The notes: a model not told the origin generated them from the letters alone. A stretch of 64,000 nucleotides of DNA from Alphaproteobacteria bacterium (GCA_020632925.1 JACKER010000007.1:308910-372909), one strand, 5' to 3'; positions 1-43,965 are shown, counted from the first letter of the stretch. A program made the numbers and translations.

Positions 1-301
1 AGGGAGTGCGCCCATCCTCGATGGGTGCGTCGAGGAGCCCCGTCTGGACGACGAGGTCGAGGAACGTCCCACATGGTCCTCCGAATGCGTGCCCACAGAC
101 CTCGGCCGGATCGCCGTCGGCATAGCAGATCGGAGAGTCGTACGCGGCGTGGAGGAGACCTGTGCATCCATCAGCGTGACGGAGCTTGTCGTTTGACCCG
201 CACGTGGGCAGTTCGAGCGCTTCGCAGGTGGGCCCGCCCGGCCGCGTAGGCTCGGGCAAAGACGGCTTCGGGTCGCAAGCCAGCATCGAAATGAGCAACA
301 T
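1..301 (-). CDS. Lipoprotein, partial. The start codon is at 299-301 and the 3' end runs off the window. It is a diverged paralog of the lipoprotein at 2931-3623
   Basis: Reverse-complement translation gives MLLISMLACDPKPSLPEPTRPGGPTCEALELPTCGSNDKLRHADGCTGL. This has a lipobox (LAC) and conserved Cys positions matching the 2931-3623 product. The start lies 3 nt downstream of the stop of the upstream metallopeptidase-like gene. Confidence 0.6.
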   Translation of the reverse strand, partial: MLLISMLACDPKPSLPEPTRPGGPTCEALELPTCGSNDKLRHADGCTGLLHAAYDSPICYADGDPAEVCGHAFGGPCGTFLDLVVQTGLLDAPIEDGRTP

Positions 302-304
302 TCG

Positions 305-1696
305 TCATCCCGCCGCGAACATGAAGCGCCTGATGGCGCCATCGAGTCGGTGGCTCCCGCCACAATGGTAGCGAGAGTACATCGCATACGCGAGATTGTT
401 GGTCGTCTGCGCCTGCAGGCGCCAGCAATGGGAGCCTGCCACGTCGTCCTCGTTGCTGTCTGGCGAGAACCCTGGCGGACACTGATGGCTCACCGGGTAC
501 ACAGAAGCCAGATGCAGCAGCTCGTGGAGTAGCCCATTCGCCAGCACGAGCGTTGGGTGAAATGCTGCCTCGACACTCGCTGCTCGGAGCCAGTCGCCCA
601 GAAGCTCCCTCCTCCCCTCCACGTCGCCAGAGACCACGACGCCATCCCCTTCCGGTGGGACCTCCGACCTGCAGGCTACTTGAGCGTTCGGGATCGACGT
701 GAAACAGGAAACCGGATCGTGGAGACAGTTCACGGGTTTCTGCCAGGATTCCGTGGCGGACCCCGTCGCGTTCTCGCCATCGTACGCCAGATCGTCACAG
801 TCGATTCCGGGTGATCCACCGCCCAGACAGCCGACCAGGTAGACGTTGAAGCCCCGGTCCAGTCGCTCCTCCAGCCACGCCCAGATTCGGCGAGTGTCAG
901 CGGGCGTCATGCGTGGGTTGTAGGCGGAGGCAACGCACAAGCTCCACTCTACGAGGTCGCTATTCGCCCGCAACATCGCCACCGCGGCCCGGACGAATTC
1001 GACCCAATCCGCCTCGGCGGTGGCGATAAGCGGTCGGATATCACCGTGGGTGAGGTCGTTCCTGCGGCGCAGCTCGTCGTCGGTCACCTTTCGAATCACC
1101 ATCTCGGGCAGAGCGACAACCTGATCGACCTGGGCCTGAGTCGGGACGGTGCACACCTGGCGTTGCAGACATGGCGCTCTGCAGTCGGTTGGTGGCCAGT
1201 CAGTGATGCCATAGGCGTTTCCGATGCACCATCGAATCGGATAGACGCGTTTGTCACGGCCGGGATCGTCGGAGGGATTGAAGGTAGCTGTCGCCTCATC
1301 GAACGGGGGTAGTTCGATGTGGGTACAATTGGGCTGACCGCGTGGTCCGTCGAAGCCATCGAAGGGGTCACGCGGAGGCCAGTCCACCGGAGTGGCGTCC
1401 AGGTACTGGTCGAGCTTGCCGGCCAGGCTGGTGCCCGTCAGACCGGCGGGTGGGCGGTGGGGGCGACCGCTGGGCTCGTGGAGGTCCAAGGTGGCGCCGG
1501 CGGCGTGGACGAGCTGGTCGCGGATGCCCCAGTCGTGCCAGATGGGTCCGAGCCAGGTCAGGCCGTCGTCTCCTCCTCCGCGCGCGTTGTCTGGAGGAGC
1601 GTCCCACCACTCGCCGCGCTGCTGGTCCCAGCGGGTGGCGATGCCGGAGGCGTCATGGATGCCGAACGCGCGCAGGTCGAGAGGGGGCCTGGTCAC
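305..1696 (-). CDS. Putative zinc metallopeptidase-like protein with a C-terminal HExxH domain, copy 1 (GTG start)
   Basis: 463-aa ORF. HELLH motif near the C-terminus (…NGLLHELLHLASVYP…AMYSRY…FMFAAG). GTGA stop/start overlap with the upstream 248-aa gene. Paralog of 3627-4898. No signal peptide detected. Confidence 0.7.
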   Translation of the reverse strand: MTRPPLDLRAFGIHDASGIATRWDQQRGEWWDAPPDNARGGGDDGLTWLGPIWHDWGIRDQLVHAAGATLDLHEPSGRPHRPPAGLTGTSLAGKLDQYLDATPVDWPPRDPFDGFDGPRGQPNCTHIELPPFDEATATFNPSDDPGRDKRVYPIRWCIGNAYGITDWPPTDCRAPCLQRQVCTVPTQAQVDQVVALPEMVIRKVTDDELRRRNDLTHGDIRPLIATAEADWVEFVRAAVAMLRANSDLVEWSLCVASAYNPRMTPADTRRIWAWLEERLDRGFNVYLVGCLGGGSPGIDCDDLAYDGENATGSATESWQKPVNCLHDPVSCFTSIPNAQVACRSEVPPEGDGVVVSGDVEGRRELLGDWLRAASVEAAFHPTLVLANGLLHELLHLASVYPVSHQCPPGFSPDSNEDDVAGSHCWRLQAQTTNNLAYAMYSRYHCGGSHRLDGAIRRFMFAAG

Positions 1697-2439
1697 GAGG
1701 TCTTCGCGGCGATGATGACGTCGGCGACGCCGTTGGGGGTGGACCCCGAGGTGGAGTACTGGAGGCCGGCCTGACCCATCAGTGCGCTGCCGGTGCTGAT
1801 GGCACCCGAGGTGTTGAGGAGGCCGTCACCGGTGATGTTGGAGCCGGTGGTGATGGTGGACCAGGAGCCGGGGAAGCGGTTGTCGCCGATGGTGTAGGAC
1901 CGCCAGGCGAAGGTGGGCGCGACGATGGTTCCCTGGACACCGTAGAAGACGATGGCGGCCATGAGCCCCGTGACCCCGACGGCAGAGAACGGAGCGCCGA
2001 TGGGGATGGAGACGGTGGTGCTGGACGGCAGGAGCTCGACGCGCTGTCGAGCGATGACCATGCCAGCGTCCTTCTGCGAGGCCCAGAGGCGGGCGAAGGC
2101 TCCCTTGGGGGTGGTGCCGGTGGTGAGACCTGCGAAGACGGCGGCCTGGACGAGCAGCGACGAGGTCTCGGCGGAGACGTCGAAGGCCTCGAGGTACTCC
2201 CCGTTCGCGGTGCGCTGGGTGCCGAGCGTCTGCCAGGCGTTCGGTCGTTCGCCGAGGATGTCGGCGGTGCGCCACCCGACGCGGAGGCCGGCGTTGGCCT
2301 CGGCCGCGCGGACGTCCAGTCCCGTGACCAGCGACGAGCCACCGTACAACAGCATCCAGGGTGTGGCGAACTGCATCACGTCCCCGTTGGCGCGGGCCAG
2401 CACCTGCCCCTCAGCGTACACGATCTTCGACATGCACAT
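1693..2439 (-). CDS. Hypothetical 248-aa protein (Thr/Ser/Gly-rich C-terminus, one long hydrophobic segment), copy 1
   Basis: ATG start with AGGGAGG 10 nt upstream. Near-identical paralog at 4895-5641. Translationally coupled (GTGA) to the HExxH protein. Confidence 0.7.
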   Translation of the reverse strand: MCMSKIVYAEGQVLARANGDVMQFATPWMLLYGGSSLVTGLDVRAAEANAGLRVGWRTADILGERPNAWQTLGTQRTANGEYLEAFDVSAETSSLLVQAAVFAGLTTGTTPKGAFARLWASQKDAGMVIARQRVELLPSSTTVSIPIGAPFSAVGVTGLMAAIVFYGVQGTIVAPTFAWRSYTIGDNRFPGSWSTITTGSNITGDGLLNTSGAISTGSALMGQAGLQYSTSGSTPNGVADVIIAAKTS

Positions 2440-2469
2440 CTCGGCAACCTCCCTGGCATACCGCTTGCG

Positions 2470-2493
2470 TAGCAGCAGCAGCAGCAGCAGCAG
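2470..2493. repeat. (CAG)7 trinucleotide repeat ((CTG)n on the coding strand) in the 5' leader of the 1693-2439 gene
   Basis: tag followed by 7 tandem cag. The paralogous leader at 5672-5689 has only 5 units. Confidence 0.9.
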
Positions 2494-2575
2494 AACGCAA
2501 GGATGTGGCAGAGGATCGCCCGGCTCGATCGGCTTGCGGTGCGGGTCCGTGGTTGTTCAGTTGGCGAACGGATGA

Positions 2576-2917
2576 ACCATCGAGGCGGCGAAGCGCGCGT
2601 TCGCAGACGGACCGGCGGTGACCTTCCGGTTCGACGAGTTCTACAGCGAGGCGCTCGACCTGCGTCGCGACGTGGATCTGGGGACCTACGAGGAGGGCTG
2701 CGCGGCCGTGCTCGATGCGTATCGGGCCGCCATCGACGAGGTGTTGGTGAGGGCGGGGCTGACGGCGGACGACGTGGACGACGTGTCCCTCACGGGCGGG
2801 ACCTCGCAGCTGCCGTTCGTGCGGGGGCTGTTCGCGGAGCGCTTCGGCCCGGGACGGCTGCGCAGCGCGGACGCGTTCACCAGCGTGTGCGAGGGGCTGG
2901 CGGTGGCGGCGGCCTGA
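2576..2917 (+). pseudogene. Truncated Hsp70 (DnaK/HscA-like) C-terminal fragment
   Basis: In-frame peptide …VSLTGGTSQLPFVRGLFAERFG…DAFTSVCEGLAVAAA matches the Hsp70 GG(S/T)xxxPxV and C-terminal DEAVAxGAA region. Reading frame opens immediately at the duplication boundary (~2570) with no N-terminal ATPase part. Confidence 0.55.
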
Positions 2918-2930
2918 GACTCGGCTCGGG

Positions 2931-3623
2931 TCAGGGTGTGCGGCGGCGCGCGGCTTCGGCCATCTGCAGGAGCTCTTCCTGTTGGTACGTGAACCACTCG
3001 ACACAGCAGTGGTCGCCGACGCACCCAGGTTCCGTCGCTTGGTTCGGCTCGCCCCACCACGCTCGGTCGGCGACCTCTCCATCACAGCAGACCTGGCCGA
3101 ACCGACTGGTCCCGACCAGCATGCCGGACTCGTCGAACACATCGATTCGACCACGCTCCCAAACCTCTTCGAATTCTCCGTCAACGCCCATCGGGTGCAT
3201 CGTTACCCTGGTAACGTCCGTGAACTTGTCGAACCGCCGGTCGTCACCGGTCTTGCACCAGAATGCCCAGATTTCGTTGGCCCACACCTGATCGAAGGAG
3301 CCCGTGTCCGGCGTTCCGGGCGGCCAGCGATCCCACGTGCCGTTCTCGAAGTCTGGCTCGAGCATTCCGCTCTCGGCGACCCGCTCGAGGAAGGTGGGGC
3401 AAGGATCGGCTCCGCACTCGACGGTGGGATCCGGGCCGGCGTAGCAGGTCACCCGCGACACGAACTCGTTGGCATAGAGCCCCGTGCAGCCCCCGACGTG
3501 GGGGATCTTGTCCCCTGGACCGCACGTCGGCAGGTCGAGGGGCTGGCACGAGGGTGGAGACTCGGATGGGGGGGGCGGTGTTTCGGGCTCGGTCCTGCAC
3601 GCCCACAGGGATAGGAGCAGCAT
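2931..3623 (-). CDS. Cys-rich secreted lipoprotein (hypothetical)
   Basis: MLLLSLWAC lipobox signal. 230 aa. Overlaps the stop of the upstream HExxH gene. Diverged paralog partially present at 1-301. Confidence 0.65.
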   Translation of the reverse strand: MLLLSLWACRTEPETPPPPSESPPSCQPLDLPTCGPGDKIPHVGGCTGLYANEFVSRVTCYAGPDPTVECGADPCPTFLERVAESGMLEPDFENGTWDRWPPGTPDTGSFDQVWANEIWAFWCKTGDDRRFDKFTDVTRVTMHPMGVDGEFEEVWERGRIDVFDESGMLVGTSRFGQVCCDGEVADRAWWGEPNQATEPGCVGDHCCVEWFTYQQEELLQMAEAARRRTP

Positions 3624-3626
3624 CGG

Positions 3627-4898
3627 TCAACCCGCGAACATGAAGAGGTCGATGGCGTCGTCGAGCCTGTGACCGCTGCAGTTGTACCGGGAATACATCG
3701 CGTACACGAAGTTGTGCGTGGTCTGGGCCTGCAGCCGCCAGCACTTCGAGCCGGGCGTGTGGTCTTCGTTGCTGTCTGGGGCGAAGCCGGGCGGGCACAT
3801 GGGCGTCACGGGGTAGACCGCTGCCAGGTGGATCAGTTCGTGGACGAGGTCGCCGGCCAGATTGAGGATGCCGATGAAGGTGTCCACGGTGTTGCCCGCG
3901 CTGAGCCAATGATCGTTCATCAGCTCGACCCTGCTCTGCACGTCCCCAGGTAGCACGACCCCGTCGCCTTCCGGGGGAACGGCACTTTCACATGCGACGT
4001 GGACCTCGTGCAGCACGAGGACGGCTTCCGGAACGAAGCACGACACTGGACTGTGCAGACAGTTGACGGGGTGCTGCCAGCTCTCTGTCGCACCCGTCGT
4101 GGCATCCTCTCCGTCATAGTCGGGATCTCGACAACCGAGTCTCGAGTTCCCGCCGAAACAGCCGACGAGGTAGACGTTGAAGCCGCGATCCAGCCGCTCT
4201 TCGAGCCACGCCCAGATCCGTCGGGAGTCGGCCGGCGTCATCCGCGGGTTGTAGGCCGCCGCCAGGCACAGGCTCCACTCGAGCAGGTCGCGGTTGGCGC
4301 GAAGCATCGCGACGGCGGCACGGACGAAGTCGACCCAGTCGGCCTCCGAGGTGTACGCAAGGGGCTTGAGGTCCGCGTCGTCGAGTTCGTTCCTGCGCCG
4401 CAGCTCGTCGTCGGTCACCTTCCGGATCACCATGTCGGGTAGCGCGATCACCTGGGCGATCTCGGCCTGGGTGGGGAGGCTGCACACCTGGGGTTGCAGG
4501 CAGGGCGCCCGGCAGTCGGTGGGTGGCCAGTCGGTCGCCCCCCAGTCGCGATTCATGCAGAAGCGGATGGGGTAGGCGAACTTGTCGCGACCGGGGTCGT
4601 TGCCGTTGAAGCTCGCGCCCACGTGGACGATCGGTGGAGGTTCGATCTGCTGGCAGTTGGGGCGACCGAAGGGGCCATCGAACGGTGGCTCGTGGACCCC
4701 GCCAGAGCCGAAGGTCTCCTTCCATCGATCGAGGAGGTGGCTGGCCTCCAGGTCGAAGGGTCCGATCCCCGAGCCCGCCGCCCGGGCGTTGTCGGGAGGA
4801 GCGTCCCACCACTCGCCGCGCTGCTGGTCCCAGCGGGTGGCGATGCCGGAGGCGTCGTGGATGCCGAACGCGCGCAGGTCGAGAGGGGGCCTGGTCAC
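3627..4898 (-). CDS. Putative zinc metallopeptidase-like protein with a C-terminal HExxH domain, copy 2 (GTG start)
   Basis: HELIH motif. N- and C-terminal regions are near-identical to copy 1 and the middle is diverged with indels. GTGA overlap with the 4895-5641 gene. The track ORF 3627-5477 over-extends into the upstream gene. Confidence 0.65.
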   Translation of the reverse strand: MTRPPLDLRAFGIHDASGIATRWDQQRGEWWDAPPDNARAAGSGIGPFDLEASHLLDRWKETFGSGGVHEPPFDGPFGRPNCQQIEPPPIVHVGASFNGNDPGRDKFAYPIRFCMNRDWGATDWPPTDCRAPCLQPQVCSLPTQAEIAQVIALPDMVIRKVTDDELRRRNELDDADLKPLAYTSEADWVDFVRAAVAMLRANRDLLEWSLCLAAAYNPRMTPADSRRIWAWLEERLDRGFNVYLVGCFGGNSRLGCRDPDYDGEDATTGATESWQHPVNCLHSPVSCFVPEAVLVLHEVHVACESAVPPEGDGVVLPGDVQSRVELMNDHWLSAGNTVDTFIGILNLAGDLVHELIHLAAVYPVTPMCPPGFAPDSNEDHTPGSKCWRLQAQTTHNFVYAMYSRYNCSGHRLDDAIDLFMFAG

Positions 4899-5641
4899 GA
4901 GGTCTTCGCGGCGATGATGACGTCGGCGACGCCGTTGGGGGTGGACCCGGAGGTGGAGTACTGGAAGCCGGCCTGCGCCATCAGGGCGCTGGTGGTGGTG
5001 ATGGCGCCCGAGGTGTTGAGGAGGCCGTCTCCCGTGATGTTGGAGCCGGTGGTGATGGTGGACCAGGTGCCAGGGAAGCGGTTGTCGCCGATGGTGTAGG
5101 GCCGCCAGACGAAGGAGGGGGAGACGATGGTTCCCTGCACCCCGTAGAAGACGATGGCGGCCATGAGCCCGGTGACGCCGACGGCGGAGAACGGAGCGCC
5201 GATGGGGATGGAGACGGTGGTGCTGGACGGCAGGAGCTCGACGCGCTGCCGGGCGACGACCATGCCGCCGTCCTTCTGCGCGGCCCAGAGGCGGGCGAAG
5301 GCTCCCTTGGGGGTGGTGCCGGTGGTGAGACCGGCGAAGACGGCGGCCTGGACGAGCAGCGAGGAGGTCTCGGCGGAGACGTCGAAGGACTCGAGGTACT
5401 CGTTGTTGGCGGTGCGCTGGGTGCCGAGTGTCTGCCAGGCGTTCGGTCGTTCCCCGAGGATGTCGGCGGTGCGCCACCCGACGCGGAGGCCGGCGTTGGC
5501 CTCGGCCGCGCGGACGTCGAGGCCCGTGACCAGCGACGAGCCACCGTACAACAACATCCAGGGTGTGGCGAACTGCATCACGTCCCCGTTGGCGCGGGCC
5601 AGCACCTGACCCTCAGCGTACACGATCTTCGACATGCACAT
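4895..5641 (-). CDS. Hypothetical 248-aa protein, copy 2
   Basis: ~95% identical to 1693-2439. Same RBS and leader. The track ORF 4895-6487 is an over-extension. Confidence 0.7.
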   Translation of the reverse strand: MCMSKIVYAEGQVLARANGDVMQFATPWMLLYGGSSLVTGLDVRAAEANAGLRVGWRTADILGERPNAWQTLGTQRTANNEYLESFDVSAETSSLLVQAAVFAGLTTGTTPKGAFARLWAAQKDGGMVVARQRVELLPSSTTVSIPIGAPFSAVGVTGLMAAIVFYGVQGTIVSPSFVWRPYTIGDNRFPGTWSTITTGSNITGDGLLNTSGAITTTSALMAQAGFQYSTSGSTPNGVADVIIAAKTS

Positions 5642-5671
5642 CTCGGCAACCTCCCTGGCATACCGCTTGCG

Positions 5672-5689
5672 TAGCAGCAGCAGCAGCAG
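5672..5689. repeat. (CAG)5 trinucleotide repeat in the 5' leader of the 4895-5641 gene
   Basis: tag followed by 5 cag, then aac. Copy 1 has 7 units. Confidence 0.9.
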
Positions 5690-5766
5690 AACGCAAGGAT
5701 GTGGCAGAGGATGGCCCGGCGCGATCAGGGCACCGTGCGGGTCAGTGGTTGTTCGCGTGGGGAAGA

Positions 5767-7005
5767 TCAGGTGGGTCGGGTGTCCCAAGGCAGCACGGCG
5801 TCGGTCTCGGTGAGCCAGCGCGCCTCCTCGACGGGGGCGAGCACGAGCCCGGGAGCGACGCGGTCGCCGTAGGTCTCGCGGAAGGCGCGCAGACCGCTCG
5901 TGGACCGCCGGTCGGGGTGAGTGGTGAGCTTGACCTCCACCGGGAACAGCCTGCCGGCGTACTCGAGCACGAGGTCGACCTCGGCGCCGCCGTGGGTGCG
6001 CCAGTGCCAGAGGTTGGGGCGGGGCGACATCCGCGCGCACTGACGCCGAACCTCGCCCACCGCCGCGGTCTCGAAGAGCGCGCCGACGAGCGGGTGCCCA
6101 CCGAGGGCGGCCGGAGACGGGACGGCCTGCGACGCAGCCGCCAACCCGGTGTCCGCGAAGTAGCCCTTGGGCCGCGCGCTGAGCCGTTTGATCGCGTTGC
6201 CGGACCACGCGGGCACCTCGTGCCACTGGAACGTCGCCGTGAGCAGGTCGAGCCAGGACCGTGCGGTCGTGCGCGCGATGCCCAGCTCCCGCCCGAGGTG
6301 GGCGTGGTTCACCTCCTGGGCGCTCAGCGCGGCGGCGAGCCCGAGGAAGCGCCCGAAGGCCTGCTGGTCGGACACCTCGGACAGCAGGCGGACGTCGCGC
6401 TCGATGTACGTCCTTCTGTACGCGAGGTGGAGGTCGGGCACGAGATCGAGCGGCAGCGCCCAGGCCTCGGGGAGCGAGCCGCGCCACAGGACCTCGTAGA
6501 GCGTGCGTCCGAGCGGGAGACGCCCCGGATGATGGGTGACGAGATCGCGCGGGTCGGTGAGCCAGCGCGCGAGCCAGGGCTCACCGTCGACGCCGCCCGC
6601 GCGCTCCGCCAGGGAGAAGCCCTCGAGGTCCAGGAAGACGGCGCGGCCGGCGAGGCTCTCGGCCAGGCCGCGCAACGCGCTCCACTGCTGCGAACCCGTC
6701 AGCACGTAGGTCCCCGGACGACGATCGCGATCCACCCGCCGCTTGATGGCCGCGGCGAGCTCGGGGGCGTTCTGGACCTCGTCGACCACCAGGGGAGGGG
6801 GGCGGTTGGCCAGGAACAGGTCGGGATCGGCGCGAGCGCCCGCCACGTCCACCACGGGATCGAGGACGACCGTGTCCCAGCCGGGGAGTGCGTGTCGCAG
6901 CAGCGTGCTCTTCCCGACCTGCCGTGCCCCCGTCACCACCACGACCGGAAAGTGCGCGATCAGGCGCTGTAACCGGTCGGTCAGGTCGCGGTGGACATAG
7001 GTCAT
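5767..7005 (-). CDS. AAA+ ATPase, DUF4143-type (COG1373-like)
   Basis: Walker A (GARQVGKST), Walker B (LVVDEVQ) and a C-terminal DUF4143-like region. ATG start confirmed at 7003-7005. Confidence 0.75.
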   Translation of the reverse strand: MTYVHRDLTDRLQRLIAHFPVVVVTGARQVGKSTLLRHALPGWDTVVLDPVVDVAGARADPDLFLANRPPPLVVDEVQNAPELAAAIKRRVDRDRRPGTYVLTGSQQWSALRGLAESLAGRAVFLDLEGFSLAERAGGVDGEPWLARWLTDPRDLVTHHPGRLPLGRTLYEVLWRGSLPEAWALPLDLVPDLHLAYRRTYIERDVRLLSEVSDQQAFGRFLGLAAALSAQEVNHAHLGRELGIARTTARSWLDLLTATFQWHEVPAWSGNAIKRLSARPKGYFADTGLAAASQAVPSPAALGGHPLVGALFETAAVGEVRRQCARMSPRPNLWHWRTHGGAEVDLVLEYAGRLFPVEVKLTTHPDRRSTSGLRAFRETYGDRVAPGLVLAPVEEARWLTETDAVLPWDTRPT

Positions 7006-8684: not shown

Positions 8685-10178
8685 CTACAGCGAGGAGAAC
8701 TCCTCGCGCCGATCGGAGCCCACGTCGTCGCCGCGGCGCACGCGGACCACCGCGGACTCCTCGGCCGTCGGGTAGATGGCCTCCCAGCCCTGCGGCAGGC
8801 CGATCCCGAGGTTCTCGAACAGGTACCGGGCGTCCTTGACCGCGAGGTTGACGCAGCCGTGGCTCGCGACGCGGCCGAAGCCCCAGTGCCAGTAGGCCGC
8901 GTGCAGGGCGTAGGCTGGGCGGAAGACCATGGTCCAGGGCACGTCCTCGACGTAGTACACGTCGTCGGCGCCCGGGCGGCTCGCCATGTCCTTGTACGCG
9001 TACTTCCCGAGGATGCGGTACGTGCCGCGCGGGGTGCCCTTGGGGGGCGCGCCGGAGGCGATGACCGTCCAGTAGACGAGCTCGTCCCCGCGGAACAGCT
9101 GGAGCGTCTGCTGGTTGAGCTCCACGTCGACCCAGAGCTCGTCGTCGCCCACGCCGTCGGGGCGCACGGGGCTCGCGGAGGGGTGGCGCACGTCCTGCAG
9201 GTCGTTGATGTACCCGGGGATGCCGGGGCCCCCGGCGTCGGGCACCTTCCACCAGTGACCGTCCTCGCTGGCCGGCGTCTTCTCCACCCACAAGGACGTG
9301 TGCCAGGGGTGCGTCGCGAGGGGCTCGGACTCGAGGTCCGGCGTCGGGTGGACCATGGCGCCGTCGTAGTTGACGGTGATGGCGGGCCACAGGCCGGCGG
9401 GGGGCGGGTCGCTCTCGAAGACACGGCCCTGCCAGCGAGTGATCGGGTACAGATACACGTCGTCGAGGCGGGCCACCTTGCCGTCGTCGCGCGTGAGCAC
9501 GGGGCCCTTCTCCGTCTCGACGATCTCCTCGAAGCGGTACTTCATGCCCGCCCCGCCGGTCAGCGCGCCCACCGGGGCCTTGCCCGCCACGTAGTCGTCG
9601 ATCGAGCCGTAGAGCTGGCCCTTGAACCGCCGCCAGCGCTTCGCGTAGACCGCGGGCGTGAGCTGGTCGGGCTGGCCGTGGTCGTACTCGCCCGTCTCCA
9701 TGTAGTGATCGAACTCGGTCGGCTCGGGCGGGTCGAAGGTCACCATCGCCGGCAACGCCGTCGGCTTCTCCTCGGCCACCTCGGTCCCCGTGAGGCAGAG
9801 CCAGCCGTTCGCCTCGAGCTGCCCCCAGTCGTCGGCGCACCCGGGGCCGGGCTGCCTCGCGATCACCCGGAAGGAGCCCCCCTCCGAGGTCAGGCCGCGC
9901 GCCTTCGCCCCGGCCTTCGGCTCGAACAGGATGGTCTTCTTGGTCTTCGACCTCCGCAGCTCGAGGTACTCCGGCTCCGGCGGTGCCGGGGCCGGCGACG
10001 GGGTCGCGGCGACCACGGCCACCGGCTCGGGCTCGGCCACCGCCTGGGCGGACGGGGTCTCGGCCGGCTCTTCCTGCACCCCGGGCGAGGTCGCGGGCTT
10101 GCGGGAGCTGGCGTCGGCGTCGGGCATGCAGGCGGCCAACAGGAGGAGGCCACCCTGGAGCAGGGTCGTTCGGTTCAT
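8685..10178 (-). CDS. L,D-transpeptidase (YkuD domain) lipoprotein
   Basis: MNRTTLLQGGLLLLAAC lipobox. HGCVNL catalytic motif near the C-terminus. The upstream 420 codons of track ORF 8685-11441 are spurious because they are antisense to the ligase gene. Confidence 0.75.
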   Translation of the reverse strand: MNRTTLLQGGLLLLAACMPDADASSRKPATSPGVQEEPAETPSAQAVAEPEPVAVVAATPSPAPAPPEPEYLELRRSKTKKTILFEPKAGAKARGLTSEGGSFRVIARQPGPGCADDWGQLEANGWLCLTGTEVAEEKPTALPAMVTFDPPEPTEFDHYMETGEYDHGQPDQLTPAVYAKRWRRFKGQLYGSIDDYVAGKAPVGALTGGAGMKYRFEEIVETEKGPVLTRDDGKVARLDDVYLYPITRWQGRVFESDPPPAGLWPAITVNYDGAMVHPTPDLESEPLATHPWHTSLWVEKTPASEDGHWWKVPDAGGPGIPGYINDLQDVRHPSASPVRPDGVGDDELWVDVELNQQTLQLFRGDELVYWTVIASGAPPKGTPRGTYRILGKYAYKDMASRPGADDVYYVEDVPWTMVFRPAYALHAAYWHWGFGRVASHGCVNLAVKDARYLFENLGIGLPQGWEAIYPTAEESAVVRVRRGDDVGSDRREEFSSL

Positions 10179-11367: not shown

Positions 11368-13095
11368 GTGCGTCGCGGTGCGCGACGAGGAGCGGCGATG
11401 ATCTGGGTGACGGCGGCATGGGCACAGGACGTGGTCTCCAACGGCGATCTGCCTTCGCTGAACGCCCAGAACTTCCGGCCGAGCGTCGATGCGCCGCGCG
11501 CGCTGTGGGTGGACGAGGCCGCCCGCGCGCCGGAGGGCCCCGTCGGCCGGCTGCTCTTCCACTACACCGACGACCCGCTGGTCTACCGGACCGAGGAGAG
11601 CACCGTCGGTCTCGTGCGCAACGTGGTGCAGGCCGACCTGCTCGGGGGCTGGGCCTTCGGACCGGCGCGGCTCGGGCTGGTGGTGCCGCTGTACCTGTAC
11701 GCGAACGGCGACACCGCGTCGGGGACCGGGCTCGGCGATCTGGCGATCGACGGGCGGGTCACGGTGATCGACGGGGACGCGACCCCCGTGGACGTGGCGC
11801 TGCAGGGGCGGATCTCCGTCCCCACCTCCACCGTCGACCTGCCGCTCGGCAACCCGGGCGTCGGCTGGGAGATCGCGGCGGTCGCCAGCAAGCAGGTGGA
11901 CCGGCTGCTGCTGGCCGCCAACCTCGGGACCACTGGCGGTCCCGCCGTGGACCTCGAGAACGTCAGCGTCGACGACGCGTTCACCGCGCGCGGCGCCGTG
12001 GGTGTCGACGTCGTCCCGGACGTGGCGGGCGTGACCGCGGAGGTCGCGACGCACCTGTCGTACGCGTCGCTGACGAACAGCGCGAGCAACCCGACGGAGG
12101 CGCTGCTCTCGGGTTGGGGTCACCCGACGGGCGAGGTGGTGATCCGCGGGGGCCTCGGCGCGGGGCTCACGCCCGGCATCGGGAGCCCCGACTTCCGCGT
12201 GATCCTGGGGGTGGGCTATGCCCCGCGGTCCGAACCACCCGCGCCCAAGGTGGTGGACACCGATCTCGACGGGTTGCTCGATCCCGACGACGCCTGTCCG
12301 ACCGAGCCCGAGGACGTGGACCAGTGGCAGGACGAGGACGGCTGCCCCGATCCCGACAACGACGGGGACGGGCTGCTCGACCCGGCGGACGGCTGCCGCG
12401 ACGAGCCCGAGGACTTCGATGGGTGGAAGGACGAGGACGGCTGTCCCGATCCGTTCACGCTGCTGACGGTCGCCATCGTCGACGAGCAGCAGCAGCCCAT
12501 CGAGCTCGCGAAGGGCGTGATCACCGCGCCCGACGGCCGCACCTGGCCCGTGGCCAACGGTCGCGTCTCGGTCGAGGTGCCCGCGGGGACGTACGAGGTG
12601 GCCGCGCGCGCGGGGACGTACGACCCCGCCCAGACCACGGTCGAGGTCCCCGACGGTCCGCCGGTCGGCACGTACGTGGTGCTGAAGAAGCAGAAGAACG
12701 CGAAGGTCGTCGTGACCCGCGACCGCATCGATCTGCAGGACAAGGTCTACTTCGAGACCGCGTCGGCGAAGATCAAGAAGGAGTCCTACGGGTTGCTCGA
12801 CCAGGCGGTCCAGATCCTCGTGGACTACCCCGAGATCGGCCTGATGCGGATCGAGGGCCACACCGACAGCCGCGGCTCCGACAGCTACAACCTGAAGCTC
12901 TCGAAGGAGCGCGCCGCCTCGGTCCGCGAGTACTTCATCGAGCACGGCATCGCGCCCGAGCGCCTCACGTCCGAGGGGTACGGCGAGACCCGCCCGCTCG
13001 ACCCTGCCAACAACGAGGCTGCGTGGTCGAAGAACCGCCGCGTGGACTTCTTCATCGAGCGCTGGGACGACCAGCCGATCGCCCCCGCTCCCTGA
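11368..13095 (+). CDS. OmpA-family outer membrane protein with thrombospondin type 3 (DxDxDGxxD) repeats
   Basis: C-terminal OmpA-like domain (…IEGHTDSRGSDSYNLKLSKERAASVREYF…). TSP3 Ca-binding repeats. Signal peptide MRRGARRGAAMIWVTAAWA if the GTG at 11368 is used. Alternative ATG at 11398. Confidence 0.7.
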   Translation: MRRGARRGAAMIWVTAAWAQDVVSNGDLPSLNAQNFRPSVDAPRALWVDEAARAPEGPVGRLLFHYTDDPLVYRTEESTVGLVRNVVQADLLGGWAFGPARLGLVVPLYLYANGDTASGTGLGDLAIDGRVTVIDGDATPVDVALQGRISVPTSTVDLPLGNPGVGWEIAAVASKQVDRLLLAANLGTTGGPAVDLENVSVDDAFTARGAVGVDVVPDVAGVTAEVATHLSYASLTNSASNPTEALLSGWGHPTGEVVIRGGLGAGLTPGIGSPDFRVILGVGYAPRSEPPAPKVVDTDLDGLLDPDDACPTEPEDVDQWQDEDGCPDPDNDGDGLLDPADGCRDEPEDFDGWKDEDGCPDPFTLLTVAIVDEQQQPIELAKGVITAPDGRTWPVANGRVSVEVPAGTYEVAARAGTYDPAQTTVEVPDGPPVGTYVVLKKQKNAKVVVTRDRIDLQDKVYFETASAKIKKESYGLLDQAVQILVDYPEIGLMRIEGHTDSRGSDSYNLKLSKERAASVREYFIEHGIAPERLTSEGYGETRPLDPANNEAAWSKNRRVDFFIERWDDQPIAPAP

Positions 13096-33263: not shown

Positions 33264-34735
33264 CTCGAGCCCTCCCAGGCGTCCGTCTGGACCCGCCAGA
33301 GGTACCGGGTCGAGGCCCGCCGGTCCACCCGGAACGTGCGCTCGAGGACGGCGTCGCCCGAGACCATGCGGACCTTGTGCGTGCCCTCGGTGAGCTCCAG
33401 GCCCACGATGGGCGTGGCGCCGACGGGTCGGCCGTCGACCTCGACGCTGGCGTCGGGGGGCAGGGAGGCGAAGCTGATGGGGATGCGCGCGCTGGCCGGG
33501 GTCTGCACCGGCTCGGGCGCAGCGGTCGGGCGGGGCGTGACCGGAGCAGGTGCGGGTGTGGGTGCGGGCTCCGGATCGGGCACGGGCACGGGCACGGGCA
33601 CGGGCACGGGCACGGGGGCAGGTGGTGGAGGGGCCGGGGCGGCGATCGGCGGTTGGGGTCGCGGGGGCTCGGGGGCCGGGCGCGTCGAGAGCCAGAGGGT
33701 GCCGAGCACGATCAGCCCGACGAGCACCACCGCGGCGGCGGCGGACACGGCGAGCAGCGTGGTGCCGCCTGCGAACAGGGCCATCCGCACGGGGACCTGG
33801 CCGGTGATCGAGCCGGTCACCACCGGGTGCGACAGGGTCATGGCCTCCGTGAGCACCTCGCCTACGAGGTCGTCGTGCGGCAGCGTGCTGGCGGCGGGGA
33901 CCACCGACTCCGCCCAGTCGCGCAGGCGCGCGTGGTGCCCCGCCTCGCGCAGCAGCTCCGTGCACTGGCGCTCGACATCCCGGGGCTCGGGCCGACCGAC
34001 CGCGTCCAGGGCGCACATCCGGAGCGCCATCCGCAGCGCCGCGTGCTCGAGCTCGGTCCCGGTCGGCGCGGGTGCGGCGGGATCGGGCCGCTTGCCCGTC
34101 AGCATCTCGTGCAGCACGACGCCGAGCGAGAAGACGTCGGTCGTGGGCCCCTCGTTGCCGTAGAACCGCTCGGGGGCGATGTATCCCTCGCTCCCCATGA
34201 TCCCGGTGGAGGTCCGCGCCTCGCGCGCGTCGAACGTCGCCTTCGCGATCCCGAAGTCCAGGAGGACCACCGAGCCGTCGGGCGTGAGCTGCACGTTGCT
34301 GGGCTTCAGGTCGCGGTGCCGCAGGTGCAGCGCCGTGTCGCCGGGACCCGGCTGGTGCCACAGGCGGTGCAGGGCGCGCGCGATCTCGGCCGTGATCTCG
34401 AGCGCGATCTCGGGCGGCAGCGGGCCGTGGCTGCGCAGGACGCGCCCGAGCGAGGTGCCGTCCACGTACTCCATCACCACGGCCCACCGGTCGGCGAGCT
34501 TGACCGGCGGCTCGACGTGGACGACCGCGCGGTCGCGCACCAGCCCGAGGATGCGGGCCTCGTCCCGGAAGCGCTCGAGCACGTCGGCGGGCGGGTTCGC
34601 GTCCTTGAGCAGCTTGATCGCGACGTCCTTGGTGAAGCCGCCCGCGCCGGTCAAGGTCGCCCGATACACCGTCCCGAAGCCCCCCTGACCGAGGACGGAC
34701 GTGATCTGGTACCGGCGGGCGACGTCGGTGGACAC
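33260..34735 (-). CDS. Ser/Thr protein kinase with TM, Pro/Ala-rich linker and C-terminal PEGA domain
   Basis: LGQGGFGTVYRA…VAIKLL…HRDLKPSNV…DFG…APE. GTG start. The track ORF over-extends to 35146. Confidence 0.75.
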   Translation of the reverse strand: MSTDVARRYQITSVLGQGGFGTVYRATLTGAGGFTKDVAIKLLKDANPPADVLERFRDEARILGLVRDRAVVHVEPPVKLADRWAVVMEYVDGTSLGRVLRSHGPLPPEIALEITAEIARALHRLWHQPGPGDTALHLRHRDLKPSNVQLTPDGSVVLLDFGIAKATFDAREARTSTGIMGSEGYIAPERFYGNEGPTTDVFSLGVVLHEMLTGKRPDPAAPAPTGTELEHAALRMALRMCALDAVGRPEPRDVERQCTELLREAGHHARLRDWAESVVPAASTLPHDDLVGEVLTEAMTLSHPVVTGSITGQVPVRMALFAGGTTLLAVSAAAAVVLVGLIVLGTLWLSTRPAPEPPRPQPPIAAPAPPPPAPVPVPVPVPVPVPDPEPAPTPAPAPVTPRPTAAPEPVQTPASARIPISFASLPPDASVEVDGRPVGATPIVGLELTEGTHKVRMVSGDAVLERTFRVDRRASTRYLWRVQTDAWEGSR

Positions 34736-43464: not shown

Positions 43465-43965
43465 ATGACGGTGTGGATCGCGCTGGCGGTCGGCTGCACG
43501 ACGACCAGCTCCGTGACGGACACGACACCGGCGGACACGGACACCGACACCGACATCGACGCGGACACCGACGCCGACGCCGACGCCGACTCGGACGCCG
43601 ACACCGACAGCGACACCGACACCGACGCGGACACCGACACGGCGGACACCGGCGCCACGACGCCTCCGCCGCTGTGGGCCGACGTGCAGCCCATCTTCTA
43701 CGCCCACTGCCAGGTCTGTCACGACGGACCCCCCGGCTTCGCGATGAACAGCCCGTCCGATCTGGTGGGCGTGGCCTCGGTCCAGGTGCCGACGATGTCG
43801 CTGGTGACGGCGTTCGACAGCGCCAACAGCTACCTGTACCTCAAGACCGAGGGGACCCAGGCGAGCGTGGGTGGCATCGGGCAGCAGATGCCGCGTGGCG
43901 AGCCGGCGCTGTCCCAGGCGGACATCGACCTCGTCCGCGACTGGATCGACGGCGGCGCGCTGTAG
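43465..43965 (+). CDS. Lipoprotein with an Asp/Thr hexanucleotide-repeat linker and a PSCyt1-like (CxxCH) domain
   Basis: MTVWIALAVGC lipobox. (DT/DA)n tract. …FYAHCQVCHDG…QQMPRGEPALSQADIDLVRDWIDGGA resembles the planctomycete cytochrome C (PSCyt1) domain. Alternative ATG at 43441. Confidence 0.6.
   Translation: MTVWIALAVGCTTTSSVTDTTPADTDTDTDIDADTDADADADSDADTDSDTDTDADTDTADTGATTPPPLWADVQPIFYAHCQVCHDGPPGFAMNSPSDLVGVASVQVPTMSLVTAFDSANSYLYLKTEGTQASVGGIGQQMPRGEPALSQADIDLVRDWIDGGAL
43505..43650. repeat. Hexanucleotide (gacacc/gacgcc)n coding tandem repeat
   Basis: About 24 imperfect units encoding a (D-T/D-A)n linker. Confidence 0.85.

Follow-up and report, generated by a model that had tools for sequence, protein, structure and literature searches.

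What does a cassette of three genes do when none of its products belongs to a described family, and when its two copies in one genome have diverged so unevenly? The question is raised by the first 5,766 nucleotides of a 64,000-nucleotide stretch of DNA (the window; GCA_020632925.1 JACKER010000007.1:308910-372909). The window comes from a 1.13-Mb contig of a metagenome-assembled genome (MAG) labelled 'Alphaproteobacteria bacterium' (locus tags H6735_01330-01360). Each copy encodes, in this order, a 248-residue protein (A), a larger protein with a HExxH motif (B) and a small Cys-rich protein with a predicted envelope anchor (C). We read the cassette tentatively, with a probability of about 0.4, as a polymorphic module of an effector (B), its partner (A) and an immunity or anchoring protein (C), with repeat-variable and possibly phase-variable expression. 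Two observations support an effector/immunity-like reading: copies of C occur on their own, and a fixed boundary separates A and the first 38 residues of B from the rest of B and C.

Open reading frame (ORF) calls and translation confirmed a head-to-tail tandem duplication of the unit on the minus strand, as proposed in an earlier sequence-only reading of this DNA. Copy 1 consists of A1 (1693-2439; 248 residues, starting Met-Cys), B1 (305-1696; 463 residues with 14 Cys) and the 5' part of C1 (1-301; MLLISMLAC...), a gene cut by the window edge whose complete protein (P0016) has 242 residues. Copy 2 consists of A2 (4895-5641; 248 residues), B2 (3627-4898; 423 residues) and C2 (2931-3623; 230 residues, Cys-rich, starting MLLLSLWAC... 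and with the core CCxG...AWWGxP). The HExxH motif is HELLH in B1 (526-512, residues 391-395) and HELIH in B2 (3842-3828). No signal peptide was seen on A or B by inspection of the translations. The genes are coupled, as had also been proposed: the stop of A overlaps the start of B as GTGA in both copies, and the junction of B and C, earlier given as a gap or an overlap, is a 3-nt spacing in both, with C in the same frame one codon on. A readthrough fusion of B and C is unlikely and was rejected, because the two genes overlap in two related loci (L002 and L007), out of frame in L007.

Identity between the copies falls along the cassette. At the protein level A1 and A2 are 94% identical, B1 and B2 61% (BLASTP) and C1 and C2 42-43%, near the 45% first estimated for the lipoproteins. 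In a sliding DNA identity profile, and in BLASTN of L006 against the window, a single stretch of some 985 nt (1584-2570 in copy 1, 4786-5765 in copy 2) stands out as homogeneous, with 90-100% identity; it takes in the leader, the whole of A and, in B, precisely codons 1-38. These codons lie at 1583-1696 in B1, where they begin MTRPPLDLRAFGIHDASGIATRWDQQRGEWWDAPP, mark the end of the homogenised tract and hold a short conserved motif, and at 4785-4898 in B2. Beyond codon 38 the DNA identity drops sharply: the remainder of B is 40-87% identical and C about 55%. Synonymous divergence (dS) is 0.14 in A and 0.12 in codons 1-38 of B, where nonsynonymous divergence (dN) is 0, against 0.9-2.6 in the rest of B and 1.46 in C. 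A dS of about 0.13 in the 5' block and of about 1 or more beyond it indicates homogenisation or recent sharing of the block made of leader, A and B(1-38); the block of the remaining B plus C is old. The A proteins and their leaders had been called near-identical, but the leaders differ in their number of CTG repeats, 7 in one copy and 5 in the other. Both termini of B had been described in the same way; this is true of the N-terminal 38 residues, which are identical, but not of the C-terminus, where the last 89 codons show 65-78% DNA identity and a dN of 0.26.

Between the window copies dN/dS is 0.22 for A, 0.21 for B and 0.32 for C, the last resting on the first 97 aligned codons since C1 is cut by the window edge. 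Three C paralogs of a sister MAG gave 0.32-0.38 with a mosaic dS. Positive selection was sought over whole genes and in windows of 40 codons, and dN/dS stayed below 1 except in one linker window at about 1, with dS saturated or mosaic. At 0.21-0.38, all cassette genes are under purifying selection. A mosaic dS combined with a dN/dS of 0.2-0.3 throughout supports recombination or gene conversion; it does not show the diversifying selection that had been suggested for the lipoprotein, and none of the windows exceeds 1 convincingly. The other suggestion, that the ends of the genes had been converted, is borne out on the 5' side by the homogenised tract but not on the other side, where there is none.

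The unit was sought in related genomes, and the same order was found in at least 10 unrelated contigs; its hosts are uncultivated bacteria that resemble Myxococcota. An A homolog (HMM E-values of 1e-125 to 3e-7) lies directly 5' of a B homolog in L001 (the sister MAG), L002, L003, L007, L009, L011, L013, L014, L015 and L016, often with overlapping stop and start; L013 is counted from the 3' end of an A-like ORF only, judged by eye. The order is kept across clades in which B is only 22-30% identical. Such conservation elsewhere argues for a functional module. The flanks differ from locus to locus (VapBC, HipA, IS66, a group II intron, a C39 ABC exporter, alpha-2-macroglobulin), which indicates that the three genes form an autonomous unit in variable regions. 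The sister MAG and the window share 88% identity in A, a nearly invariant stretch of residues 1-35 in B, 43% identity over the whole of B and 25-33% in C, so that the boundary between constant and variable parts is the same as between the window copies.

In L010 and L017 the position of A is taken by a beta-rich protein of 131 or 261 residues, which hhalign did not link convincingly to A (E = 0.022). Some clades thus have, in addition or instead, a small beta-rich protein of about 131 residues (MS.../MGC...) encoded 5' of B, at 4599-4991 in L010 and at 563-961 in L017; these two resemble each other only faintly (BLASTP E = 0.003). In L004 (130-1629 and 2262-2995) one A gene is split into two ORFs beside a group II intron reverse transcriptase, and the contig of P0010 carries an A gene without B near IS66 TnpB. 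Both cases point to turnover in regions that are mobile and variable.

None of the three proteins, nor their distant relatives, gave a significant match in Pfam, NCBIfam, PHROGs or PADLOC, and profiles of A, B and C found no significant match among PDB sequences. The statement that no family could be assigned to them thus holds after these searches. A literature search for a described equivalent of the cassette found none.

Protein B has few relatives. Searched exhaustively with a hidden Markov model (HMM) of the B alignment, 1.84 billion proteins yielded 27 cluster representatives, and a word-indexed search with B returned only itself, its paralog and one protein of the sister MAG. In the 28 aligned B sequences, which include the B-like proteins of L002 and L003, W251, C254, A386, H391, E392 and H395 are invariant. 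C172, C182 and C254 are invariant or nearly so, and the family shares the motifs WPxTDCxxPC, AAxALLxxNxDLVEWxxCL, LHELxH and CWxxxxM...WAMxQRYPCL. The N-terminal motif RPxLxDLRxFx(n)GIAxxW is still visible in L016 and L002, where A is only about 50% identical, and many B homologs of other clades bear a CGCGxxCGxC cluster near the N-terminus. A third metal ligand was sought after HExxH, and no acidic or His residue there is invariant; the Glu of CWxE is absent from the window clade. Matches to curated peptidase families were sub-threshold, at E = 0.039 for WLM and E = 0.25 for Aspzincin_M35, each with one of the 28 members. Profiles of the whole of B or of its HExxH domain matched no PDB sequence even at E = 10. 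An AlphaFold model of B from a 3-sequence alignment was unusable, with a predicted local distance difference test score (pLDDT) of 29. B is therefore an orphan HExxH family, in which the motif alone suggests zinc-dependent catalysis.

Protein A is modelled with confidence as an all-beta, jelly-roll-type beta-sandwich (pLDDT 90.9) without a close structural relative. A Foldseek comparison of the model with PDB and BFVD gave template modelling (TM) scores of 0.36 or less. Its structural neighbours include two-domain beta-sandwiches (XepA, tandem CBM22 and double-jelly-roll capsid proteins), and A is probably built of two jelly-roll-type units. The neighbours also include receptor-binding and toxin-accessory jelly rolls, such as PirA, a TNF-like lectin and again XepA, and the jelly rolls of capsid, cement, tail-fibre and Ena-pilus proteins. 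Most A homologs have a Cys near the N-terminus, as a Met-Cys start or at position 3 (MC/MPC/MSC). Relatives of A number 11 among 5.8 billion clusters. None was found in 2.9 million viral contigs, and a viral origin of A was rejected on this ground. A marginal match to the fungalysin pro-domain in the PDB profile search (E = 0.3) was discarded.

A word-indexed search with C returned only itself and its paralog. Homologs downstream of B in L001, L002, L008 and L017 share the core (F/Y)DxxG...CCxG...WWGxP. Putative lipobox N-termini, read by eye, are MLLLSLWAC, MLLISMLAC, MITLVLLAAC, MVMVVAC, MLVLIQLLSC and MLSVIIWLFGC, each with a Pro-rich linker next. These putative signal peptides are very short and have no basic n-region, and the W at -2 in C2 is atypical. 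A lipobox-like signal is present on C in the window, L001, L002, L006 and L017, and also on a small unrelated lipoprotein of L010. The C protein of L008 combines a signal peptide with a GC_trans_RRR/MYXO-CTERM tail (TIGR03382, 20.1 bits against a cut-off of 15.85), and the third gene of L007 scores 12.4 bits, under the same cut-off. The third protein is thus predicted to be envelope-anchored in every case, by a lipobox or by a MYXO-CTERM-type tail.

Genes for C also accumulate without A and B. In the sister MAG, B is followed by a tandem row of three intact C genes, and a fragment of C is present as well. An independent assembly of the window's own genome, which matches 1-1622 at 100% identity, shows C1 followed by a further paralog, C1'. 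Between the window copies lies an Hsp70-like 3' gene fragment (2576-2917, plus strand; Pfam HSP70 E = 5.7e-7, profile positions 279-372 of 599) that is the junction scar of the tandem duplication. Small pieces of an Hsp70 gene come after C1 and after C1' in the window's genome, scars by which decayed units are marked. Their presence at each array junction indicates that unequal crossing-over took place repeatedly and took in the end of a convergent Hsp70-like gene. The simplest history would be such repeated unequal crossing-over, followed by loss of A and B and retention of C.

Several neighbouring features touch on these arrays. In L006 the Hsp70-like 3'-end pieces at the array junctions lie at 2066-2139 and 2954-2990. 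In L001 (8137-8391 and 8724-9119, then 9258-9883) a decayed second cassette, made of A N-terminal and C C-terminal fragments, lies upstream of the intact unit, and a VapBC-like pair (DUF6364 + PIN) is found just upstream of the intact cassette.

The repeat-bearing leaders of A are new beyond the sequence-only reading. The leaders of copies 1 and 2 lie at 2440-2575 and 5642-5766 on the minus strand. In copy 1 a Shine-Dalgarno sequence (SD), AGGGAGG, at 2454-2448 precedes the first ATG of A by 8 nt, and an inverted repeat CTTGCGT/ACGCAAG (2501-2464) encloses a perfect (CTG)7 repeat (2471-2493). In copy 2 the same inverted repeat (5697-5666) holds a perfect (CTG)5 (5673-5689), and the leader of the sister MAG has (CTG)6 (L001 9945-9964); the copy number is therefore 7, 5 and 6 in three closely related leaders. 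Elsewhere the unit changes with the lineage: (AGG)9 in L002 (1190-1216), (AGG)6 in L004 (2238-2255) and L005 (1571-1588), (GGC)11 in L007 (5100-5134), (GGTCGAT)3 in L009 (4368-4388) and a 16-mer present three times in L011 (1837-1889). A perfect tandem repeat is present in 9 of 13 A leaders and a G8 run in a tenth (L010 4526-4533), with none in L003, L015, L016 and L017. In 134 kb of sequence there are 18 perfect arrays that reach 15 nt or more; with an A leader taken as 200 nt, half of them (9) lie in A leaders, although these account for only 1.9% of the total (binomial P = 1.6e-11). Wherever a locus has a leader repeat, that repeat is one of the longest perfect arrays there.

A leader repeat that persists although its unit changes, and that differs in copy number between near-identical leaders, resembles a contingency locus and suggests repeat-mediated phase variation. 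Contingency loci in which simple sequence repeats cause phase variation are found in Neisseria and Haemophilus. The leaders share with them a perfect tandem repeat just upstream of the first gene and different copy numbers in close relatives. They differ in that the units are of three, seven or 16 nucleotides and lie in the 5' leader, not in a reading frame or a defined promoter spacer. They also differ in that the unit varies by lineage (CTG, AGG, GGC, GGTCGAT, the 16-mer, G8), and in that switching is a prediction here. A stable leader hairpin or riboswitch was considered and rejected: a hairpin can be drawn in which an anti-SD pairs with the SD and the CUG run is at the apex, but its stability is like that of shuffled sequences (z of -0.6 to -1.4), and the leaders match no Rfam family at E up to 1.

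The leaders also differ in what precedes the repeat. A sigma-54-like -24/-12 element, sought as GG-N10-GC (TGGCACG-N4-TTGCW), stands directly before the repeat in five loci: L004 (TGGAATCGTTCTTGCA), L007 (CGGCATCGACCTTGCA), L016 (AGGCGCGCCGGTTGCA, before a repeat remnant), L005 and L002. The sense strand of the window, CTGCCACATCCTTGCG, is a poor sigma-54 match, and the pattern is not enriched across the window (147 found, 166 expected). The repeat of L011 has a consensus sigma-70 promoter in front of it; no sigma-70 promoter was found in the window at 1-6000. On the opposite strand of the window a sigma-54-like TGGCATACCGCTTGCG with two mismatches lies between the CTG run and the Shine-Dalgarno sequence at 2454-2469 (+) and 5656-5671 (+). 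It is conserved in the sister MAG and would transcribe away from A through the repeat; it may be due to chance.

How might such a unit work? In the effector/immunity reading B would be the active component, a Cys-rich and presumably zinc-dependent hydrolase with an invariant HExxH. A would be its dedicated partner, made in a fixed ratio through translational coupling, and it probably binds the constant N-terminal peptide of B, acting as a carrier, an adaptor or a receptor-binding or targeting subunit for a B that would leave the cell. C would be an envelope-anchored, disulfide-rich protein that binds only its cognate B and most likely inhibits it or confers immunity, shielding the envelope of the producer from a toxic B. 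Recombination would retain the leader, A and B(1-38) and exchange the remainder of B together with C, and so create new specificities. Decayed cassettes would leave C-only genes as spare protection. Expression would start at a leader with a hypermutable repeat, probably giving on/off variation from cell to cell, that is, phase variation.

Among described systems the layout is closest to polymorphic effector/immunity modules and to adaptor-effector-immunity trios, yet it belongs to neither, because no known trafficking, adaptor, toxin or immunity family is recognised and no secretion genes are linked. The earlier comparison with effector/immunity modules gains support from the C-only copies and the fixed constant/variable boundary, and none from family membership or linkage. 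With polymorphic toxin/immunity systems, including pairs of the colicin and pyocin types (Zhang, Aravind et al. 2012, PMC3482391), the cassette shares a constant 5' part and a sharply bounded variable 3' part. It also shares a small, specific downstream gene that diverges with the variable part, arrays of the partner only and a location in variable genome regions (PMC3482391). In contrast to these systems, it has no trafficking, pre-toxin or toxin domain recognised by Pfam, NCBIfam or PADLOC, its variable parts are variants of one HExxH family and not unrelated toxin folds, and most of its constant part is a protein of its own, A, to which B adds only 38 residues. Its toxicity and immunity are predicted, and no secretion system is linked to it.

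The trios of the type VI secretion system (T6SS) are similar in their order of an accessory protein, an effector without a signal peptide and a periplasmic or lipoprotein immunity protein. They also form immunity-only arrays, and their accessory protein would bind the effector N-terminus, as proposed here for A. However, A is not DUF4123, DUF1795 or DUF2169 (no Pfam match), and vgrG, PAAR, hcp and tss genes, the ones looked for, are absent from the window and the flanks of the related loci. The PirA/PirB binary toxins likewise consist of two adjacent genes whose products lack signal peptides, with a jelly roll and a larger partner. A is nevertheless twice the size of PirA and matches it over about 96 residues at 4-5% identity; B has HExxH and no detectable Cry-like domains, and PirAB lacks a linked lipoprotein.

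Several results weigh against an effector with its immunity protein. A and B both lack a signal peptide, and the 64-kb window and the flanks of the related loci encode no secretion system; a linked sigma-54 activator was likewise not found in the window. Profile scans recognised no family of toxins, immunity proteins, adaptors or trafficking proteins in A, B or C. In B, the variable parts are homologues of one another (61% in the window, 43% against the sister MAG) and are not unrelated toxin domains. With no third ligand found and an unusable model of B, its hydrolase activity is read from a motif of five residues only. Positive selection on C, sought by dN/dS in the window pair and in the paralogs of the sister MAG, was not found. 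The P value for repeat enrichment counts related loci, of which about 5-6 lineages are independent.

The same genes could instead build a variable structure on the cell surface: A would be the structural subunit of a fibre, a lattice or a coat, B the metalloprotease that processes or matures it, and C the envelope anchor or assembly platform. Display would be phase-variable and the paralogs would be antigenic variants. The capsid, cement, tail-fibre and Ena-pilus neighbours of A fit this arrangement, as do the predicted envelope anchor that C always carries and the N-terminal Cys of most A homologs, which recalls the disulfide connectors of Ena pili. The repeats in the leaders of A fit as well, since repeat-bearing leaders are typical of surface-structure genes. 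We nevertheless regard it as rather doubtful, because A is the least variable part: it is the most conserved and homogenised protein while B and C vary, the opposite of antigenic variation in an exposed subunit. A also lacks an export signal, and the retained C-only copies are left unexplained. The missing signal peptides of A and B would suit an intracellular protease system, in which A recruits substrate for, or regulates, a cytoplasmic zinc metalloprotein B, and C is a co-regulated envelope protein or target. The Cys residues of B would then bind metal and not form disulfides; the (nearly) invariant C172, C182 and C254 and the CGCGxxCGxC cluster of many homologs could do so. Such a system is unlikely, as the constant/variable mosaic, the co-varying downstream gene and the C arrays are unusual for housekeeping proteolysis. 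Among billions of proteins there are just 11 clusters of A and 27 of B, an extremely patchy distribution, and toxin-antitoxin and mobile genes adjoin the cassette in other loci.

A jelly-roll particle of A that packages B through its N-terminal peptide, much as encapsulins load cargo, and docks on C at the envelope would account for the short conserved terminal peptide of B that co-varies with A and for the translational coupling of A and B. We hold such a virus-like shell to be very unlikely, since no A relative was found in the 2.9 million viral contigs and assembly of A would follow from a structural similarity that is only generic. Encapsulin operons do resemble the cassette in placing a structural-looking protein beside an enzyme with a short conserved terminal peptide, but the cassette is not one of them because the folds differ (HK97 against the jelly roll of A). 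The peptide is also N-terminal here, and assembly of A would be a prediction. A wider conjecture, that A forms a virus-like shell or surface lattice which carries the HExxH enzyme by an N-terminal docking peptide, is tethered or neutralised by C and is produced stochastically through the leader repeats, is a long shot; if true, it would describe an unknown kind of bacterial protein particle or delivery device. Finally, the cassette could be a decaying, duplicated remnant of a mobile element or prophage without present function. Its GC content (0.656-0.69) is below that of the remaining window (mostly 0.70-0.74), a group II intron reverse transcriptase, IS66 TnpB, VapBC and HipA are found near other loci, and the A gene of L004 is split. 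This is hardly credible for a unit in which all six genes are intact, dN/dS is 0.2-0.3, the gene order is kept across clades with B at 22-30% identity, and neither a PHROG match nor a relative in viral contigs was found.

Three proteins that lie outside all curated families and outside the sequence space of solved structures nevertheless form one conserved, selected unit. If B is an effector and C its immunity protein, the cassette would represent a metallo-effector/immunity family not described before, unusual in that its jelly-roll partner stands alone, and would enlarge the competition or predation toolkit of Myxococcota-like bacteria. Signs of repeat-mediated phase variation are rare in environmental bacteria of high GC content; the lineage-specific leader repeats are one such sign, and they supply a regulatory hypothesis that can be tested directly.

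The source of the window points to Myxococcota or a similar lineage, despite its label as Alphaproteobacteria. The window has a GC content of about 71% and carries MopE repeats, PEGA-domain kinases and DUF1592-family proteins. One relative lies on a contig titled 'Myxococcota', and MYXO-CTERM-type tails occur in related loci.

Directly upstream of copy 2 (5767-7005, minus strand) is an AAA_14/DUF4143 ATPase that matches the PADLOC candidate defence family PDC-S01 (E = 4e-106). Other repeats in the window are a 99-bp unit present 1.9 times (12268-12452, encoding Asp-rich motifs), CGGGCA present 6.7 times (33577-33616) and GACACC present 17.8 times (43534-43640). The two hexamer arrays sit within ORF intervals of a crude gene calling based on GC at third codon positions (GC3).

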